Source: a virus (Duplodnaviria > Caudoviricetes). Taken from it: DNA of 64,000 nucleotides. The stretch lies in the IMG/VR virus record IMGVR_UViG_3300042268_000564. One strand, given 5' to 3'. Below, piece after piece: positions 39,980-53,849 of the stretch. How positions within the stretch are numbered: position 1 is the stretch's first letter; every line of letters begins with the position of its first letter. The position numbers and the translations under genes are program-made. The notes under the pieces were generated by a model. The model worked only from the letters and a program-made list of their open reading frames with translations. It had not been told where the DNA came from and made no database searches.

Positions 39980-40043
39980 CTTGCTTTTTATAAAGTATTT
40001 ATTAGCGGCAGAGCTGGCAACGGGGACTAAAGGAGATTTTTTG

Positions 40044-40769
40044 ATGGATAATTCTAAGTTCAAGCAGGTGTCGAACGACGGCAGCGGCGTGTTGACGGTA
40101 TCTGTCGACAACGCATTAGTGTGTAGCGATATTCATGTGCCCGGTCATAGTGAATATCATATTAAAAAGATGATTAAATATGGTTTGGAACATGGCATTA
40201 AACATCTTTTTATTGCTGGCGATTTTTGGAATCATGATGCAATTTCACGATGGGAGCTTAAAGATAGAAATCTTGGGCTTGCCGATGAATTAAAAGCAGG
40301 AAAAGAGCTTTTGCACAGATTAACAAAATATTTTTATGTTTATCTGGTGTGTGGGAATCATGATGCAAGGATGCCAAGGATTTTGAAGTATGCTGTAAGT
40401 TATTCTGATTGGGTTGCGACAATCCATGCAAAGAAACTTGTAGTTACTGACTTTGATTATATGTTTCTTGAATCTGATGGTGAAATTTTCCGAATATGTC
40501 ATCCAGACATGTATAGCTTGGTAAAAAACAAAAGTGCCTCTACATTGGCACAAGACCTTCAGCAACACGTTATTATGGGGCACCAACATTACCTATCCAT
40601 AGCTACAAACAAAACGGGCAAGTATATGGCAATTGATGCAGGCTGCATGTGTGATATTAACGCCTTTGTTTACAAGAAAGCATCAACCACAAGATGCCCC
40701 GAATGGGAGAATGGTTTTTTCCATATTAAGAATGGGAAAGTAAAGATGATTTGTGATTACACCTTTTGA
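40044..40769 (+). CDS. Calcineurin-like metallophosphoesterase
   Basis: SDIH, AGDFW, GNHD, H, GHQH; start moved to ATG after AAGGAG. Confidence 0.85.
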   Translation: MDNSKFKQVSNDGSGVLTVSVDNALVCSDIHVPGHSEYHIKKMIKYGLEHGIKHLFIAGDFWNHDAISRWELKDRNLGLADELKAGKELLHRLTKYFYVYLVCGNHDARMPRILKYAVSYSDWVATIHAKKLVVTDFDYMFLESDGEIFRICHPDMYSLVKNKSASTLAQDLQQHVIMGHQHYLSIATNKTGKYMAIDAGCMCDINAFVYKKASTTRCPEWENGFFHIKNGKVKMICDYTF

Positions 40770-41831: not shown

Positions 41832-41843
41832 AATCCTTTAAAT

Positions 41844-41879
41844 AAAAGGGCTTGCTGGTATCAATCGGCAAGCCTTTTT
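41844..41879 (+). terminator. Intrinsic terminator
   Basis: AAAAGGGCTTGC...GCAAGCCTTTTT. Confidence 0.75.
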
Positions 41880-41917
41880 ATTTTTTGAACAGATATTAAA
41901 AAAGTTACTTATATATG

Positions 41918-41945
41918 TTGACAATTTTATGAGAGTTAATATAAT
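41918..41945 (+). promoter_or_regulatory. sigma70-type promoter TTGACA-N16-TATAAT
   Basis: Perfect hexamers upstream of cca. Confidence 0.8.
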
Positions 41946-41963
41946 AAGTTGAAGGTGAATTAA

Positions 41964-43406
41964 ATGATTATAAACATTAACCAGACTGAGCAAAAAATCT
42001 TTGACACCGTGCTCGCAGTAGCAAGTGTGCACGGCATCGTTCTTCGTGTGGCTGGTGGCTGGGTAAGAGATAAAATGCTCGGTAAAGACAGTCACGACAT
42101 CGACATTGCCGTAGATGGTGTAATCAGTGGTAAGCCAGTGACTGGCGCAGTATTTGCTGCTTTGGTTGCTGATGCTACAGGCAAAACATTTGCTGTGATT
42201 GATGCTAATCCAGAACAATCTAAGCACCTTGAAACAGCAACTATTGATATTCATGGTGTTTCTGTAGATTTTGTCCACCTCCGCAGTGAAACATATGGCG
42301 ATAGCCGTATTCCAACTGTGGAAGTTGGCACCCCTCAAACTGATGCAGAACGCAGAGACCTCACAATCAATTCTCTTTTCTTTAATATCAATACAGGAGA
42401 AATTGAAGATTTCACTGGCAAGGGTATTGATGATTTGAGAGCTGGCATAATCCGCACACCTCGTGAAAGTAAGAAAACTTTGCTGGACGACCCTTTGAGA
42501 GCTTTGCGTGCAATTCGTTTTGCGGCAAAATTTGGCTTTGAACTTGATGCAAGTCTTGTAGAGGCTATGCAGGATGCTGACGTTCATCATGCTTTTAACA
42601 ATAAAGTTAAAGTTGAAAGAATGATTAAGGAACTCGACAGTATAATGCAGTTTGCCCCTGTAAGAGGGGTAAAATTGATTATTGAATCAGGCTTGCTTGA
42701 CAATCATATTCCTGAACTTAAAGATATGGATTTTGACCAGCAAACAAAATATCACGATAAAACAGTGCTTGACCATACTCTTGCACTTACTGAAGAGCTG
42801 CATCAGCAGTTTCCTGATGATATTGACCTTAAGTGGGCTGCAATCCTTCATGATATTGGCAAGCCAAGTTCAGCTACCCCTCACAAGGACGGCGTAAGTC
42901 TTACCTTTGTAAATCATGAATTGGTGAGTGCCGACATTGCGGAGCGTGCTCTTACTAATCTTCGTTTCAGCAATGAAAGAGTGAGACGTATCAGACGGCT
43001 TGTTAAAAGGCATATGATTAACTTCAACCCGAAATGGTCTGACTTTAAGTTCAAGAAATGGCTCAGGGAGCACTTCGAATCAGCCGATGAGGTAATGAGC
43101 CTTGTAGCTTTGCGAGGTGCTGACATTAATGCATTGAATCCAGAACACAATGTAGAGCCAAAAAGAAACCATGACGCTCTTGTTGATAGAATCAGCAGGG
43201 TTGATGTGGCTGAAGCGATTGGCATGAAGTCTTTCGTAAATGGACACGAACTTCAGAAAATCTTTAATCGTAAGCAAGGTGAATGGATTAGAGAAGTTCA
43301 GGGCAAGATGATTGATTTGCAGCTTCAAGGTATGGTTAATAACCAACAGGAAGCTCTTGCTCGTGCTCAGAAATGGGCTGATAGGGAATTGGAACAATCT
43401 AGTTGA
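41964..43406 (+). CDS. cca: Class II tRNA nucleotidyltransferase (CCA-adding enzyme) with HD domain
   Basis: Motif A GGWVRD..DIDIA, loop RSETYGDSRIP, RRDLTINS, DDPLRALRAIRF, HD domain H....DHT...LHDIGK...NHE. Confidence 0.9.
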   Translation: MIININQTEQKIFDTVLAVASVHGIVLRVAGGWVRDKMLGKDSHDIDIAVDGVISGKPVTGAVFAALVADATGKTFAVIDANPEQSKHLETATIDIHGVSVDFVHLRSETYGDSRIPTVEVGTPQTDAERRDLTINSLFFNINTGEIEDFTGKGIDDLRAGIIRTPRESKKTLLDDPLRALRAIRFAAKFGFELDASLVEAMQDADVHHAFNNKVKVERMIKELDSIMQFAPVRGVKLIIESGLLDNHIPELKDMDFDQQTKYHDKTVLDHTLALTEELHQQFPDDIDLKWAAILHDIGKPSSATPHKDGVSLTFVNHELVSADIAERALTNLRFSNERVRRIRRLVKRHMINFNPKWSDFKFKKWLREHFESADEVMSLVALRGADINALNPEHNVEPKRNHDALVDRISRVDVAEAIGMKSFVNGHELQKIFNRKQGEWIREVQGKMIDLQLQGMVNNQQEALARAQKWADRELEQSS

Positions 43407-43430
43407 CAATTAAGTTCTCGGCTATATAAT
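43403..43430 (+). promoter_or_regulatory. sigma70-type promoter TTGACA-N16-TATAAT
   Basis: Perfect hexamers; -35 overlaps cca stop codon. Confidence 0.8.
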
Positions 43431-43471
43431 GAGTGTAAGTAATGACACTCTATTTTTTTGAGGAGAAACAG

Positions 43472-44315: not shown

Positions 44316-44378
44316 GTCAGACCATCATTGGAATGGACTTGTCAGTCCATCATTGGAATGGACTTGTCAGTCCATCAT
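44316..44378. repeat. 2.5 copies of a 25-bp palindromic tandem repeat
   Basis: GTCAG[A/T]CCATCATTGGAATGGACTT at 44316 and 44341, partial at 44366. Confidence 0.9.
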
Positions 44379-44615
44379 GCACCAGTAGTGAGTACAGAGA
44401 TTGTATTTATTGCAGATTTCCATTACATCACGAAGTCTGGTTCCATCGTTAAAGCTGGCTTTGATTTCAGCCCATGCCTTGGCGATGTTTCTTTTCTTTT
44501 TTGTATAGAAGGCTGGCAGGTTGTTCTGGTCAACGAAGTCTCTGCCAGAGATTTGTTTTTCATCAGGTCTGAAAGTAATTTCGGTGTTTTTGTTTTTCAG
44601 TTCTGTTCGGTTCAT
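44367..44615 (-). CDS. Hypothetical protein
   Basis: Coupled to 44615-44857; ends inside the tandem repeat. Confidence 0.6.
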   Translation of the reverse strand: MNRTELKNKNTEITFRPDEKQISGRDFVDQNNLPAFYTKKKRNIAKAWAEIKASFNDGTRLRDVMEICNKYNLCTHYWCMMD

Positions 44616-44857
44616 TATTTGGCTCCTTCAAGATATTTGTTCAGTCTGTTTATGAAAGAACTTGCAGCCTTCATGGTTGAGAAGGTGATATACAAACAGC
44701 ATGTTTCTGCCTCGACATTGTTTCTATGTGTAATAACTTTTGCTGCTCTGAGCTTTTTTTCAGCAGCATAGTTATCTTCACAATCGAGGACTTTTGCCAA
44801 AGAACCGATAAACATAAAGCTTTTGTCCATTTGGTGAATGTTATTTTCTGTATACAT
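44615..44857 (-). CDS. Hypothetical protein
   Basis: AGGAG RBS, own promoter. Confidence 0.6.
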   Translation of the reverse strand: MYTENNIHQMDKSFMFIGSLAKVLDCEDNYAAEKKLRAAKVITHRNNVEAETCCLYITFSTMKAASSFINRLNKYLEGAK

Positions 44858-44891
44858 TTGATTTCTCCTTACTTTTTTTTCCTATACCTTT

Positions 44892-44919
44892 ATTATAATA
44901 AAATTCAAAAAAGTGTCAA
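44892..44919 (-). promoter_or_regulatory. sigma70-type promoter TTGACA-N16-TATAAT
   Basis: Perfect hexamers on minus strand. Confidence 0.8.
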
Positions 44920-44936
44920 GTGGGTAAATAAAAAGT

Positions 44937-45218
44937 TTACATTTCTCTTTCTTTTCTGGTTGCTTTCAGGTTTTCAACAATTTCTTCAGCTTCTGAGTAG
45001 ATACGAGCTTTGATTGTGTTAAGCTCTGCTTCTACTGCTTCCAAGCTTGCTATCATTCTCTTGCTGGCTTCTGCATCTTTTTCTGAAAGATTCTTTGAAA
45101 GATGCTCTTTCATTTTTTCAATCTGTCTCAAAGGTTCATGCAAAGGATTTAGTTCTCTGCTTTTCTTGTCTACTGCATCAGGGATGTAATCACCTTCTGT
45201 GTATTTAAAAGGATTCAT
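44937..45218 (-). CDS. Hypothetical coiled-coil protein
   Basis: AAGGAG RBS, own promoter. Confidence 0.6.
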   Translation of the reverse strand: MNPFKYTEGDYIPDAVDKKSRELNPLHEPLRQIEKMKEHLSKNLSEKDAEASKRMIASLEAVEAELNTIKARIYSEAEEIVENLKATRKEREM

Positions 45219-45252: not shown

Positions 45253-45280
45253 ATTATAACATAATGTAAAAAAGTGTCAA
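45253..45280 (-). promoter_or_regulatory. sigma70-type promoter TTGACA-N16-TATAAT
   Basis: Perfect hexamers on minus strand. Confidence 0.8.
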
Positions 45281-45344: not shown

Positions 45345-45905
45345 ATGGGACAACAGAAGCGTATGTTCAACTTGAATAGGGGGCTTATTGCGGCTAATCA
45401 GGATGGGCAGGAAATAATTATTCGCACTAAGATTCTGAAGGATTCGCTGCAATTTTCTTTTGCGGGTGACACTGTTACAGCAAGGATAGAGAAAAAAGAA
45501 TGTTTGGCGGAATTTGAAAGAGTTAAGGATAATATGTTTGAAAAAAGAAGTTTTGAAGGAATGAAACACGCTTTAAGGCACCTTCTTAAAAATAAGTCTT
45601 TAAAGTTTGATGCAGGAATTTTAAGTGTTGGTGAGTATACTTTTTCGTTTGTTGTTGTCCAGAACGGTTTTCTTGCTCATTATGAGATTATGCCCGATAA
45701 TATTGTTTCATTTGGCGTGATTCATCAAGATGACGCCATTATGCTTGCCAAGCAACAGGGTGAATGGAATGTTAAGAAACAAGAGCAGGAGATTATTGCA
45801 CATTGCAAAGATTATTATGACGCTCTGGATAAAATAATAAAAGAGATAGAGCAAATTTTTGCAAATACAGTTAAAGACTTATCCGAAAAAAGGCAGTTGC
45901 ACTAA
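45345..45905 (+). CDS. Hypothetical protein
   Basis: ORF preceded by TAAAGTATT motif. Confidence 0.6.
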   Translation: MGQQKRMFNLNRGLIAANQDGQEIIIRTKILKDSLQFSFAGDTVTARIEKKECLAEFERVKDNMFEKRSFEGMKHALRHLLKNKSLKFDAGILSVGEYTFSFVVVQNGFLAHYEIMPDNIVSFGVIHQDDAIMLAKQQGEWNVKKQEQEIIAHCKDYYDALDKIIKEIEQIFANTVKDLSEKRQLH

Positions 45906-47275
45906 TGAGTACAAGCGGTGGTTCAAAACGACAAGGAGCAGGTGGCGGCTCAGGCAAACATAATGTTGAAAACAGAGAGCCAATTGCGCCCAGAGATGAA
46001 TGGACAAGAATCGGCAAAGAAGGTGGCGGTGGTTCAATCGCAGTTGCTTCAGCGATGGGCAACGAAGACCCTCTTTCTCAGCTCAAAAATTCAAAATATA
46101 AAAACAAAAAATTAGATAGCTTAAAAGATATAATTATCGCAAGAGATGCAAATGGTAAGCTCTTGATGTCCAACGAAGAATTTAATAAACAAGTAGCCAA
46201 GCTTGCTGTAAATAAACTCAAGAAAGCCAGAGAGATAGGGTTAATGCAGGGCGGGGTTATGCGACTCCCCAAAACAGGGAAAGCGATAGTTGTAGGCGAC
46301 TTGCATGAACAAGCAACAAATCTTACGGCGATTCTTAAACATGCGAATTTAGATAAGAACCCAAAAACAAAATTGATTTTGTTGGGTGATGTTTTGTCCG
46401 GGTCAAAAGTTGCCCGTTCTGACGAAACTGGTGGCGGCGATTCGATGCACAGAGTTATTTCATGGCTACAGGCTCGTTACCCTGACCAAGTTTTTGTTGT
46501 CAATGGGAATCATGAGATGGGCATGATGGCTGGCGTGGACAAGATGGAAGGTGGCAGCAAGGCTGCAAGTGCAATGGGACGTATGGAAGCTAGATTGTTC
46601 ACAGATAAAGAACAGGCTATAGAAAGAATAAAAGAATCACCGTTGCAGATTCAGATTGGTGATAAAGCCAAGGGGGAATATACAAGAACATTTCAACATG
46701 CCCCAGGTGCTGGCGACATTACAGAAGTTGCGAAATTGAATACCCCCGAAGATAGAAACGCAAAAGCTACGAACATATTTGAGAGCGGTGAAACTTTAAC
46801 AAAGGAAGCTTTGCAGAAGGTTAATGAAGGGAATAAGTCGGATTTAACATATTTTGGACACGTCTCGCCTGAAGCCGTCGAAAAGGGTTTACATAGTGGC
46901 GACTTGAAGCCTGAGATAAGCAAGGGTGTTGTTTCTAAGTTTGCTGGCGGCGGGATGTTTGTTGATTCGCAAAATCAGGACACAAGTGGTATTGTTGAGA
47001 TAGACCTTAATAAAGATTCAGCTCCTGAAAAGATTATTTCCATGAAGGATTTAAGGAACGAATATCAGAAATCTGCTGGCCATCTTGAAGGTTTAAGAGA
47101 ATTTGGTGGCAGCGATAAAGATACATTCAGAGGGCAGATTGCAATTAAAAATGCGGCTGAAAGAGCGGCAAAAGAAGCTGGTGAAAGGGCAAAGAAAGAA
47201 AAACCATTGACACCTGAAGAACAGGCAAAGTTGCTTGCAGACTTGATGGGCAGTGTTAAGGGTGCTGATTGGTAA
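45905..47275 (+). CDS. PPP-like Ser/Thr phosphatase / metallophosphoesterase with Gly-rich basic N-terminus
   Basis: VGDLHE, LGDVL, NGNHE, H, FGH. Confidence 0.75.
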   Translation: MSTSGGSKRQGAGGGSGKHNVENREPIAPRDEWTRIGKEGGGGSIAVASAMGNEDPLSQLKNSKYKNKKLDSLKDIIIARDANGKLLMSNEEFNKQVAKLAVNKLKKAREIGLMQGGVMRLPKTGKAIVVGDLHEQATNLTAILKHANLDKNPKTKLILLGDVLSGSKVARSDETGGGDSMHRVISWLQARYPDQVFVVNGNHEMGMMAGVDKMEGGSKAASAMGRMEARLFTDKEQAIERIKESPLQIQIGDKAKGEYTRTFQHAPGAGDITEVAKLNTPEDRNAKATNIFESGETLTKEALQKVNEGNKSDLTYFGHVSPEAVEKGLHSGDLKPEISKGVVSKFAGGGMFVDSQNQDTSGIVEIDLNKDSAPEKIISMKDLRNEYQKSAGHLEGLREFGGSDKDTFRGQIAIKNAAERAAKEAGERAKKEKPLTPEEQAKLLADLMGSVKGADW

Positions 47276-52042: not shown

Positions 52043-52070
52043 TTGACAATGTTGAGGTCAAAGTTATAAT
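52043..52070 (+). promoter_or_regulatory. sigma70-type promoter TTGACA-N16-TATAAT driving ncRNA 2 / vWA gene
   Basis: Perfect hexamers. Confidence 0.8.
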
Positions 52071-52085
52071 ACGAATATAACGATT

Positions 52086-52217
52086 TTGAAGGTTGCTTGC
52101 AGCAAACCAACAAGCAAAATACTTTTAATCTTTACCGCTAACGTAACCTGTAAATCATTAATCTCGGAGCAATCCGGCGCAATCTCGGTAGGCTGTTGCT
52201 ACCGGGTCGATTATGGT
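52086..52217 (+). ncRNA. Candidate structured RNA, copy 2, plus a downstream three-way-junction domain (leader of vWA gene)
   Basis: AGGTTGC(52090-96)/GTAACCT(52143-49) stem with CAGCAAAC; then ATCATTAATC/GATTATGGT stem enclosing CGGA-GCAA-TCCG and CGGTAG/CTACCG hairpins. Confidence 0.7.
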
Positions 52218-52218
52218 G

Positions 52219-52250
52219 AACAGGTTAGAAGAAATTCTAACCTGTTTTTT
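52219..52250 (+). terminator. Leader terminator/attenuator upstream of vWA gene
   Basis: AACAGGTTAGAA-GAAA-TTCTAACCTGTT TTTT, lies between promoter and RBS. Confidence 0.85.
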
Positions 52251-52274
52251 ATTTGGGAAAAAAGGAGGCTGAAA

Positions 52275-53849
52275 ATGCCAAGAAAAGTAAGAAAAGTTGT
52301 AACTGGTAACGATGGTACTCACTACGAAAACACTGGCAATCCACTGGTGGACTTTTTCTCTGCTGCTGGTTCCATGCTTAAAGGTGGAACGGCACCAATA
52401 TTCAGTTCAGCATTGACTGCTGACAAGCTGCGTGCAATGCAATTGCTGTTCTGGCTGCGTGATATTCGTGGCGGGGCTGGTAATCGTTCAGGCTTTAAAG
52501 ATTGTCTGAATCTGCTCGCCAAAGAAGCTACTGAATGGGCAAGAGAAAACATGGACATCATCCCTGAACTCGGCAGATGGGACGACCTGACAGCTTTCAT
52601 TGGCACACCTCTCGAAAAAGAAGCCATTGATATGTGGGCAAAAGCAATTGCCGACGGGAATGGTCTTGCTGCAAAGTGGGCACCAAGGGCAACTAACAAA
52701 GCCAAGAAGCCTGTATTTGACGCTCTCCGCAAGTCGCTGAAAATGTCACCAAAAGACTTCAGAAAAACTTTGGCGCAGAATACGAATGTTATTGAAACCG
52801 CAATGTGTAACAAGGAATTTGATAAAATCAATTACAACCATGTTCCATCTGTTGCAATGAGCCGTTACAAGAAAACATTCTCAAAGCATGACTGCACAAG
52901 ATTCGGCGAATGGATTAACGAAGTCAAGGAAGCTGTCGCAACTGGCAAAAAGGGCAAAGGTGTTGCAAAAATGAACACAAAAGCTTTGTTTCCTCATGAC
53001 ATCGTGAGACAGGTTATGGATGAGCTTGGTGGTCGAGTTAGTTGCTACGGCGGTGGCAGATATGATACTAAGTTCAAGTCAGAATTTGCTGATACTGCAT
53101 TTGCTTCTTTGCCAGATTATATCGGCGACAAAGACCAGAAGATTCTTTGCATCGTAGATTGTAGCGGCTCAATGACAAGTGTTACGAGTGGTTCTGTGTC
53201 CATGATGGATATTGCTCATGGCTTGGGTATGTATTGTTCTGCAAGAATTGCGGAAGATAACCCTTTCCACAAGCTTATTGTGCCATTCTCAAGGACTGCC
53301 AGATTCTTTTCATGGAAAAATCTGCCGTTCAGTAATGCTCTATTCAAGCTGCGTGTCACTGAGAGTGAAGTTGCGTCAACTGACATGTCTGCGACTTTGA
53401 GCCTGATTCTTGACACTGCGAAGCAGTATAAGCTTAAGGCTGAAGATATGCCAACGACTTTAATGATTCTTTCCGACATGCAGTTCAATGGTGCAGTTCA
53501 TTCTGGTGATGATACTGTTTTTGAAAGATTCAAGAAAGAATTCAAGGCTGCTGGTTATAAATTTCCAAAAGTAATTTTTTGGAATCTCAATTCTGGCATG
53601 GGCAACGGCAAACCAACTACAGCTACAGCAAAGAATATGGTGCTTATCAGTGGTTTCTCAGCGAATATTCTTACCTCTGCTCTTAAGGGTGGTGGAATTA
53701 CACCTGAGTCTATCATGATGGACACTATTGGTAAGTATGAAAACTTGGTTAAAATTCCTGCCTCTGAACAGGCTCCTGTAAAAAAGGTAAAGCGGGTAAC
53801 TAAAACTACCGCAACAACTGCCAAAGCAAAAACTACGACCAAAGCGTAA
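52275..53849 (+). CDS. TROVE/Ro60-like helical + vWA protein (DUF2828-like)
   Basis: LFWLRDIRGGAG.R, ELGRWDDL, LAAKWAPR, INYNHVPSVAM, MIDAS DCSGSM, ILSDMQF, FWNL, ISGFS; AGGAGG RBS before ATG 52275. Confidence 0.8.
   Translation: MPRKVRKVVTGNDGTHYENTGNPLVDFFSAAGSMLKGGTAPIFSSALTADKLRAMQLLFWLRDIRGGAGNRSGFKDCLNLLAKEATEWARENMDIIPELGRWDDLTAFIGTPLEKEAIDMWAKAIADGNGLAAKWAPRATNKAKKPVFDALRKSLKMSPKDFRKTLAQNTNVIETAMCNKEFDKINYNHVPSVAMSRYKKTFSKHDCTRFGEWINEVKEAVATGKKGKGVAKMNTKALFPHDIVRQVMDELGGRVSCYGGGRYDTKFKSEFADTAFASLPDYIGDKDQKILCIVDCSGSMTSVTSGSVSMMDIAHGLGMYCSARIAEDNPFHKLIVPFSRTARFFSWKNLPFSNALFKLRVTESEVASTDMSATLSLILDTAKQYKLKAEDMPTTLMILSDMQFNGAVHSGDDTVFERFKKEFKAAGYKFPKVIFWNLNSGMGNGKPTTATAKNMVLISGFSANILTSALKGGGITPESIMMDTIGKYENLVKIPASEQAPVKKVKRVTKTTATTAKAKTTTKA

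Follow-up and report, generated by a model that had tools for sequence, protein, structure and literature searches.

How a bacteriophage comes to carry a CCA-adding enzyme with the catalytic head of plant and fungal enzymes and the HD domain of bacterial ones, and what it does with it, is the question raised by a gene of virus record IMGVR_UViG_3300042268_000564 (Duplodnaviria; Caudoviricetes). The gene, hereafter the CCA gene, lies in a stretch of 64,000 nucleotides, here called the window, which covers bases 255068-319067 of the 393,839-bp IMG/VR record, rated 100% complete. To judge from its sequence, it very probably codes for a functional class II CCA-adding enzyme in a tailed jumbo phage, read from its own host-type promoter, and belongs to a family that falls in the clade of the CCA-adding enzyme of eukaryotes (eCCA). 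The enzyme is of full length and shows no decay, and the large family to which it belongs occurs mostly on large viral contigs. As an enzyme the gene product is ordinary, phage CCA-adding enzymes being already known.

All the motif strings quoted in the original prediction are present in the 480-amino-acid (aa) open reading frame (ORF), and motifs A, B and D of class II enzymes are found both in the sequence and in A1, a 20-sequence alignment of the family (Table 1). Motif A reads LRVAGGWVRDKMLG..SHDIDIA (aa 27-49), with G31, G32, V34, R35, D36, D45 and D47 invariant in A1; ANPEQSKHLETAT at aa 81-93 contains the NPEQSKHLETA segment; the motif B string TDAERRDLTINSLFFNI is present, with R130, R131 and D132. 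The segment TDAER, which had been taken for the EDxxR motif, is the lead-in to motif B, and the equivalent is DDPLR at aa 175-179, with D175 invariant in A1. Pfam models matched the head (PF01743 PolyA_pol, 7.8e-27, aa 27-164), the neck (PF12627 PolyA_pol_RNAbd), the HD domain (PF01966, 1e-08, aa 269-364) and the tail (tRNA_NucTran2_2), and PHROG 2244 'tRNA nucleotidyltransferase' matched at 1.1e-45. The predicted HDIG-type HD domain was borne out: HDIGK occupies aa 296-300, the metal ligands H...HD...H...D are all present, and TIGR00277 (HDIG) was passed with 35.6 bits against a cut-off of 27.6. The AlphaFold2 model (mean predicted local distance difference test score 92.1, predicted template modelling score 0.86) has the head-neck-body-tail fold of class II enzymes. 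Among PDB structures Foldseek ranks the Arabidopsis CCA-adding enzyme 9kma first (E 6.1e-23, TMq 0.72 for the full length), and the 46 best matches comprise only class II CCA/A-adding enzymes and poly(A) polymerases of bacteria.

Table 1. Features of the CCA gene and its immediate surroundings, in window coordinates
Feature	Position	Strand	Detail
Intrinsic terminator of the upstream gene, 20-bp hairpin then U run	41840..41886	+	Hairpin part 41840-41883
Putative promoter of the CCA gene, perfect sigma-70 consensus TTGACA-N16-TATAAT	41918..41945	+	12/12 matches
Shine-Dalgarno-like GAAGGTGA	41951..41958	+	5 nt 5' of the ATG, read from the sequence
Coding sequence, predicted 480-aa class II CCA-adding enzyme with HD domain (P0001)	41964..43406	+	ATG start, uninterrupted ORF
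Head and neck (aa 1-250), eCCA-type catalytic core	41964..42713	+	50-57% identity to eukaryotic enzymes
Motif A, GGWVRDKMLGKDSHDID, catalytic carboxylates D45 and D47	42054..42104	+	Invariant columns in A1
SKHLETA (aa 86-92), hallmark strand of the eCCA/huge-phage family	42219..42239	+	Without counterpart in bacterial comparators; rare among prokaryote genomes
DFVHLRSETYGDSRIP (aa 102-117), flexible-loop region, full length	42267..42314	+	Gap-free alignment to the Arabidopsis enzyme
Motif B, RRD (aa 130-132)	42351..42359	+	Invariant in A1
Motif D, DDPLRALRAIRF (aa 175-186), nucleotide-templating	42486..42521	+	D175, D176, R179, R182, R185 and F186 invariant in A1
HD phosphohydrolase domain (aa 264-387)	42753..43124	+	H264, H271, H296-D297, K300, H318, E319 and D387 intact
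C-terminal tail, tRNA_NucTran2_2 region	43125..43403	+	Homologous to eukaryotic and bacterial tails
Terminator-like hairpin and T run	43431..43460	+	25 nt past the stop codon; hairpin 43431-43450

By its gene content the source virus is a tailed jumbo phage. The genome gave a terminase match of 24.6 bits (over the cut-off) and a tail-sheath match of 28.9 bits (below the 31.4-bit cut-off), and the record also encodes a phage DNA polymerase and a primase. The terminase and sheath models matched this genome only, with no match in the related large records G001-G004. The capsid model of nucleocytoplasmic large DNA viruses (PF04451) matched neither this record nor the four related ones, and the control genomes gave no match either. 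Among deposited phages there was no DNA match by megablast and none above 31% identity by tblastn, and PADLOC returned only a trivial HD-domain similarity to Cas3.

The genome holds 29 tRNA genes according to ARAGORN, at genome positions 106521-135203 on the minus strand, which puts them 120-150 kb upstream of the window. Within the window, ARAGORN and Rfam scans found no tRNA and no known RNA family. None of the 29 genes encodes CCA: after the discriminator, 12 have none of the CCA nucleotides, 8 have the first C only and 9 have CC followed by G. Consequently, every phage tRNA needs post-transcriptional CCA addition. The three bases after the discriminator almost always end in G (CCG 9, CTG 6, TTG 5, ATG 2), and this G-ending trinucleotide may represent a 3'-processing signal that the genes have in common.

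Most likely the enzyme serves to make and mend the CCA ends of phage tRNAs. The head would add C, C and A template-free to tRNA 3' ends and so serve the need for CCA on all 29 phage tRNAs. E. coli Cca combines a polymerase with a phosphohydrolase that clears 2',3'-cyclic, 2'- or 3'-phosphates. By analogy, the intact HD domain would act as a 2',3'-cyclic phosphodiesterase and phosphatase, removing such groups from damaged 3' ends first, after which the head would rebuild CCA on the damaged tRNAs as it does on new ones. The gene would be transcribed alone from its consensus host-type promoter. We infer catalytic activities and substrates, like the expression timing and descent direction considered below, from comparisons of this kind.

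The original prediction had the enzyme probably repairing tRNA 3' ends cut by host defence nucleases, which stands as a possible use of the enzyme and fails as its first need. Taken as the main role, counter-defence would mean that the enzyme rebuilds toxin-cut or blocked 3' ends of host and phage tRNAs, and that phage tRNAs are matured by the host enzyme. The HD site is kept across much of the family, the full H-H-HD-K-H-E-D signature being found in about 195 of 314 collected relatives aligned to the C-terminal profile, and a published list of RNA-repair genes of jumbo phages includes CCA-adding enzymes (PMC7824862). Phosphoesterases of the 2H type are also associated with relatives, as a fused 2H-SAK domain (PF22547) in P0013, a fused LigT-like domain in P0123 and a neighbouring gene in locus L058, which fits a family role in healing damaged RNA 3' ends. 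A metallophosphoesterase is encoded two genes upstream here and another directly downstream of P0123, and Ro60/vWA-like genes occur near the CCA gene both here (52086-53849) and in locus L036. Against this stand the constitutive need set by 29 tRNA genes without CCA and the outcome of a search for partner ligases in the genome: Rnl2-type RNA ligase (PF09414) and RtcB (PF01139) were not found, their positive controls having matched, and the T4 Rnl1 model PF09511, a model without positive control, gave no match. Counter-defence does not exclude tRNA maturation; as the main role it is possible, if somewhat unlikely.

The members with a 2H domain (P0013-P0024, PF22547 '2H-SAK') share the head and HD domain with the phage enzyme at about 39% identity overall and 53-55% in the head; their additional C-terminal 2H phosphoesterase domain is absent from the enzyme described here.

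Some observations weigh against the main reading of the gene. Sequence alone does not separate CCA-, CC- and A-adding specificity, and S. pombe cca1 and cca2, both close relatives by sequence, have split activities. The best NCBIfam model, TIGR02692 (actinobacterial CCA), spans aa 13-471, its full length, at 3e-60 and reaches 204.2 bits against a cut-off of 438.8; NF008137 (E. coli Cca) gives 73.2 against 451 and NF009814 98.2 against 290. With no equivalog cut-off reached, the function is assigned by no curated model. An asymmetry in the C-terminal half, set out further below, also counts on this side. The enzyme could be an A-adding or CC-adding enzyme, or a poly(A) polymerase marking RNAs for decay; nine of the 29 tRNA genes already end in CC and would need only A, and the PcnB model TIGR01942 does match. 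Its score, however, is far under the cut-off (76.4 against 305.65), as is that of NF008634 (61 against 702), and E. coli poly(A) polymerase I (PcnB) is not known to have an HD motif. The flexible loop is full length and aligns gap-free to that of the Arabidopsis CCA-adding enzyme, the genome encodes PolyA_pol only once, and in 20 of the 29 tRNA genes no CC follows the discriminator. A partial or different activity is for these reasons quite improbable, and a complete CCA-adding enzyme remains the reading followed here.

The eukaryote-type head of the original prediction is upheld by the closest relatives in the PDB. The best sequence matches, each over aa 2-243, are 9kma (1.5e-62), identified as the Arabidopsis thaliana CCA-adding enzyme by its title in the fold search, and S. 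pombe cca2 (5.5e-53) and cca1 (7.8e-51), while the B. stearothermophilus enzyme (7.9e-14) and human TRNT1 (2e-10) match far more weakly. That the human enzyme scores so low agrees with the alphaproteobacterial origin published for the CCA enzyme of Holozoa (PMC4538823). Scored with a hidden Markov model (HMM) of the head, eukaryotes reach 300-358 bits, Bacteroidota 145-173 and other bacteria 66-128. A search of 1.84 billion representative proteins returned two sets of relatives, one full-length at 35-60% identity and the other matching in the head only at 50-57% identity. The named head-only relatives, those of Paratrimastix, Diacronema, Chlorokybus, Albugo, Aureoumbra and Adiantum, are without the HD site. 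The hallmarks NPxxSKHLETA and DFVNLRSExY proved to be eukaryotic, as the original prediction claimed. The eCCA head signature (NPxxSKHLETA, DFVNLRSExY..SRIP, RRD.T.N.LFYN) is found in the phage enzyme, which departs from the eukaryotic type in being HD-intact and phage-borne.

Compared directly with eCCA (Arabidopsis 9kma; S. pombe Cca1/Cca2, 9ns2/9ns4), the head and neck share the identity listed in Table 1 and the motifs NPxQSKHLETA, DFVxLRSETY.DSRIP, RRDLTINSLFYNI and DDPLR, within the same full-length fold and with a homologous tail. The difference lies in the H..HD..H..D metal site, lost in eCCA and kept in the phage enzyme, whose gene has bacterial-type expression signals. E. coli Cca (NF008137) and the actinobacterial enzyme (TIGR02692) have the same class II order of head, HD domain and tail; the phage head, which carries SKHLETA, belongs to another subfamily.

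Bacterial enzymes lack SKHLETA, as the original prediction stated, at least among those sampled: chromosomal Bacteroidota have Y[GH]TAMF at this position and other bacteria KHGTVTV or similar. The Bacteroidota enzymes, collected indirectly through a Lak-phage query, are the nearest to the family of the cellular bacterial groups sampled; they have an HD domain, an R.E.Y...SR.P loop and RRDLTINA.YY as in the family (P0341 from Muribaculaceae, and P0401, encoded among DnaA, SurE, QueC and a Mfa-like fimbrillin). In a scan of 185,579 prokaryotic species, each represented by one genome, 24 stretches matched [ED][QK]SKHLETA or R[VI]AGGWVRD. Only three encode relatives, each on a contig of 2-23 kb in a metagenome-assembled genome (MAG). 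These MAGs were considered as a cellular home of the family and rejected, because all three also hold a standard cca elsewhere, the SKHLETA copy lies on a short separate contig, and in 30 further genomes of one of the MAG phyla the best match to the query was 106 bits at 31% identity.

Trees were built from the head (about 255 columns, LG+C20 with posterior mean site frequencies), with Heimdallarchaeia left out. A 68-row tree held six bacterial outgroups, and a 41-row tree, obtained with a careful search, added Bacteroidota and Lak-phage enzymes; the long-branch outgroups L048 and L054 jumped into the family polytomy and were left out of later trees. A head phylogeny against class II enzymes had been proposed with the original prediction, and in the 41-row tree the phage HD-bearing enzymes and the eukaryotes form a clade with support of 100/99 and a stem of 0.74. 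Outside it stand the chromosomal Bacteroidota with Lak (100/98, stem 0.94) and the four other bacteria (100/99). These head trees leave the phage and eukaryote clade, with chromosomal Bacteroidota and the four other bacterial enzymes excluded, well supported. Within it, the 68-row tree places the query's six HD-bearing sequences (94/85) outside a 52-row group (94/83) that comprises every eukaryote-type row and 24 HD-bearing rows, with an open backbone; another tree gave 95* for phage lineages branching before eukaryotes, and in the 41-row tree HD-bearing lineages diverge successively before them with support of 63-89% only.

In approximately unbiased (AU) tests, neither a monophyletic group of HD-bearing sequences (p 0.20) nor, on the 41 rows, a tree joining eukaryotes with Bacteroidota (log-likelihood difference 21.5, p 0.13) was rejected; the latter test replaced one on a quick tree (log-likelihood difference 0.9, p 0.5), in which optimisation of the free tree had been poor. 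These sequences do not settle where the phage and eukaryote clade is rooted and which way descent ran within it. The lineage bridging bacterial and ancestral eukaryotic enzymes that had been suggested thus survives in part: the family does branch between bacterial enzymes and eukaryotes, but it is not singular and its branching order is open. Among the lineages compared here, the huge-phage family appears to be the closest non-eukaryotic relative of the eukaryotic enzyme.

The same cannot be said of all phage CCA-adding enzymes. Known phage tRNA nucleotidyltransferases (PHROG 2244, PHROG 24229; Erwinia phage Hena1, Lak) are, like this one, class II enzymes in tRNA-rich genomes; the Lak-phage enzymes group with Bacteroidota and this family does not. 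In Prevotella phage Lak-B2 (L059), positions 1426-2697 encode a 423-aa CCA enzyme, and a near-identical relative, P0282, is without a Pfam HD match. The Lak-phage enzyme looks host-derived, unlike the huge-phage family.

The original prediction took the junction of head and HD domain for a fusion of two lineages. This was rejected, as no fusion is needed: head, HD domain and tail form the ordinary bacterial architecture, TIGR02692 matches over its full length, and the bacterial outgroups share both this domain order and the H-H-HD-K-H-E-D signature. In the alignment to the C-terminal profile none of this signature is left in named eukaryotes. An hhalign comparison of the phage and eukaryotic C-terminal halves gave 99.2% probability (E 6.7e-20), running through the HD helix with the eukaryotic dyad lost, which points to the eukaryotic body domain being a decayed HD domain. 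By this alignment the eukaryotic enzymes would be the same protein as the phage family with the HD metal site lost.

The halves are not equally close: in hhalign the phage and bacterial C-terminal halves score 164.6 and the eukaryotic half 75-92 against either, about 92 against phage, whereas the head is much nearer eukaryotes than bacteria. This asymmetry would also fit a chimera, in which an eCCA head passed from a eukaryote to a phage ancestor and was joined there to a bacterial HD and tail half. Such an origin is highly improbable, as faster eukaryotic decay after loss of the HD site accounts for the asymmetry, the outgroups already have the order and signature, several HD-bearing phage lineages in bacteria-rooted trees branch before the eukaryotes and not inside them (with the weak to moderate support given above), and these phages, to judge from their Shine-Dalgarno sites and sigma-70 promoters, have few opportunities to take up genes of eukaryotes.

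The family is large. A word-indexed search returned 3677 homologues, of which the best 255 or so all have NPxQSKHL[EA]T-like motifs. In IMG/VR it occupies 31 loci on viral contigs, 13 of them on records of at least 200 kb, and the nearest clusters of the ESM Atlas are labelled mostly Uroviricota. Nine neighbourhoods of HD-bearing relatives were inspected: eight are phage-like, one, on a contig of 3 kb, is too short for a judgement, and none of the nine holds chromosomal housekeeping genes. The eight combine many small unknown genes with genes for PARP, Cpn10, intein-bearing IMPDH, Apyc1, R2K or 2H proteins. In loci L036, L041 and L042, PARP (WGR-PARP_reg-PARP), RNase T, Cpn10, IMPDH (once with an intein), R2K ATP-grasp and IF1-like genes recur.

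Several relatives are longer than the enzyme described here. Many reach about 870-920 aa because the head is preceded by some 270-300 further N-terminal residues, an extension that matched no Pfam family (IMG/VR loci L006, L008, L009, L011, L012, L019 and L020; proteins P0125, P0132, P0133 and P0146). Others lie inside ORFs of 2000-2600 aa (L013, L022, L031; P0203), and P0136 has a C-terminal GGACT domain.

The CCA gene is flanked by signals of bacterial type. The hairpin at 41840-41883 has a minimum free energy of -26.1 kcal/mol (z -7.2), equalled by none of 200 shuffles, and as a terminator of the upstream gene it would separate the CCA gene from the gene before it. The hairpin downstream of the gene reaches into the beginning of the next transcription unit, which has its promoter at 43403-43430. 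The promoter assigned to the CCA gene is one of 14 perfect TTGACA-N16-TATAAT copies in the window, where 0.04 would be expected, and this excess suggests that the gene is read early by host RNA polymerase. The 14 promoters span 29326-56512, 12 on the plus strand and 2 on the minus strand, and several share the spacer start ACTTTTTTG or ATGTTG; the region looks like a dense early-gene region for host sigma-70 polymerase. Bacteroidota promoters differ from this consensus, and the promoter set argues against a Bacteroidota host. A cassette of three small minus-strand ORFs of 82, 80 and 93 aa at 44367-45218, set in a region that is otherwise all on the plus strand, has two of the perfect promoters to itself (44892-44919 and 45253-45280).

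Calcineurin-like metallophosphoesterase genes (PHROG 221; PF00149/NinI-like) flank the CCA gene at 39981-40769 and 45905-47275, both on the plus strand; the one next to the CCA-2H fusion P0123 is in locus L057. The Ro60/vWA-like protein encoded on the plus strand has 587 aa with DUF2828 and DUF7788, and a perfect promoter lies just 5' of its gene at 52043-52070. In locus L036 a vWA_Ro60 gene stands about 2 kb from the CCA gene of relative P0089. Given the two occurrences, CCA-enzyme and Ro60-like genes may travel together in huge phages.

Where the CCA-adding enzyme of non-holozoan eukaryotes came from is actively debated, and the huge-phage sequences could change the conclusion of that debate. 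A recent preprint ties eCCA to Heimdallarchaeaceae and bacteria of the Bacteroidota group by a similarity it admits to be weak (bioRxiv 10.64898/2026.05.29.728689); the nearness of the Bacteroidota enzymes found here agrees with its Bacteroidota/Chlorobiota/Rhodothermota link. Viruses are not considered there, the words 'phage' and 'virus' being absent and the three uses of 'viral' concerning horizontal gene transfer only. Our literature searches returned no paper on a large family, mostly on viral contigs, that combines an eCCA head with an intact HD site, none grouping huge-phage enzymes with eukaryotic ones to the exclusion of Bacteroidota, and nothing relevant for the motif string. That the HD-bearing huge-phage enzymes are the closest living relatives of eCCA, nearer than the enzymes of Bacteroidota/Chlorobiota/Rhodothermota and of Heimdallarchaeia, is a doubtful proposition that we put forward tentatively. 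If true, loss of the HD site would have given rise to the eukaryotic enzyme from a virus-borne gene pool, or from the still unsampled lineage of its bacterial hosts, in parallel to the phage origin of mitochondrial RNA polymerase and Twinkle helicase. With its HD-active, HD-lost and 2H-fused members, the family is a natural set for studying the role of the HD domain in tRNA 3'-end repair.

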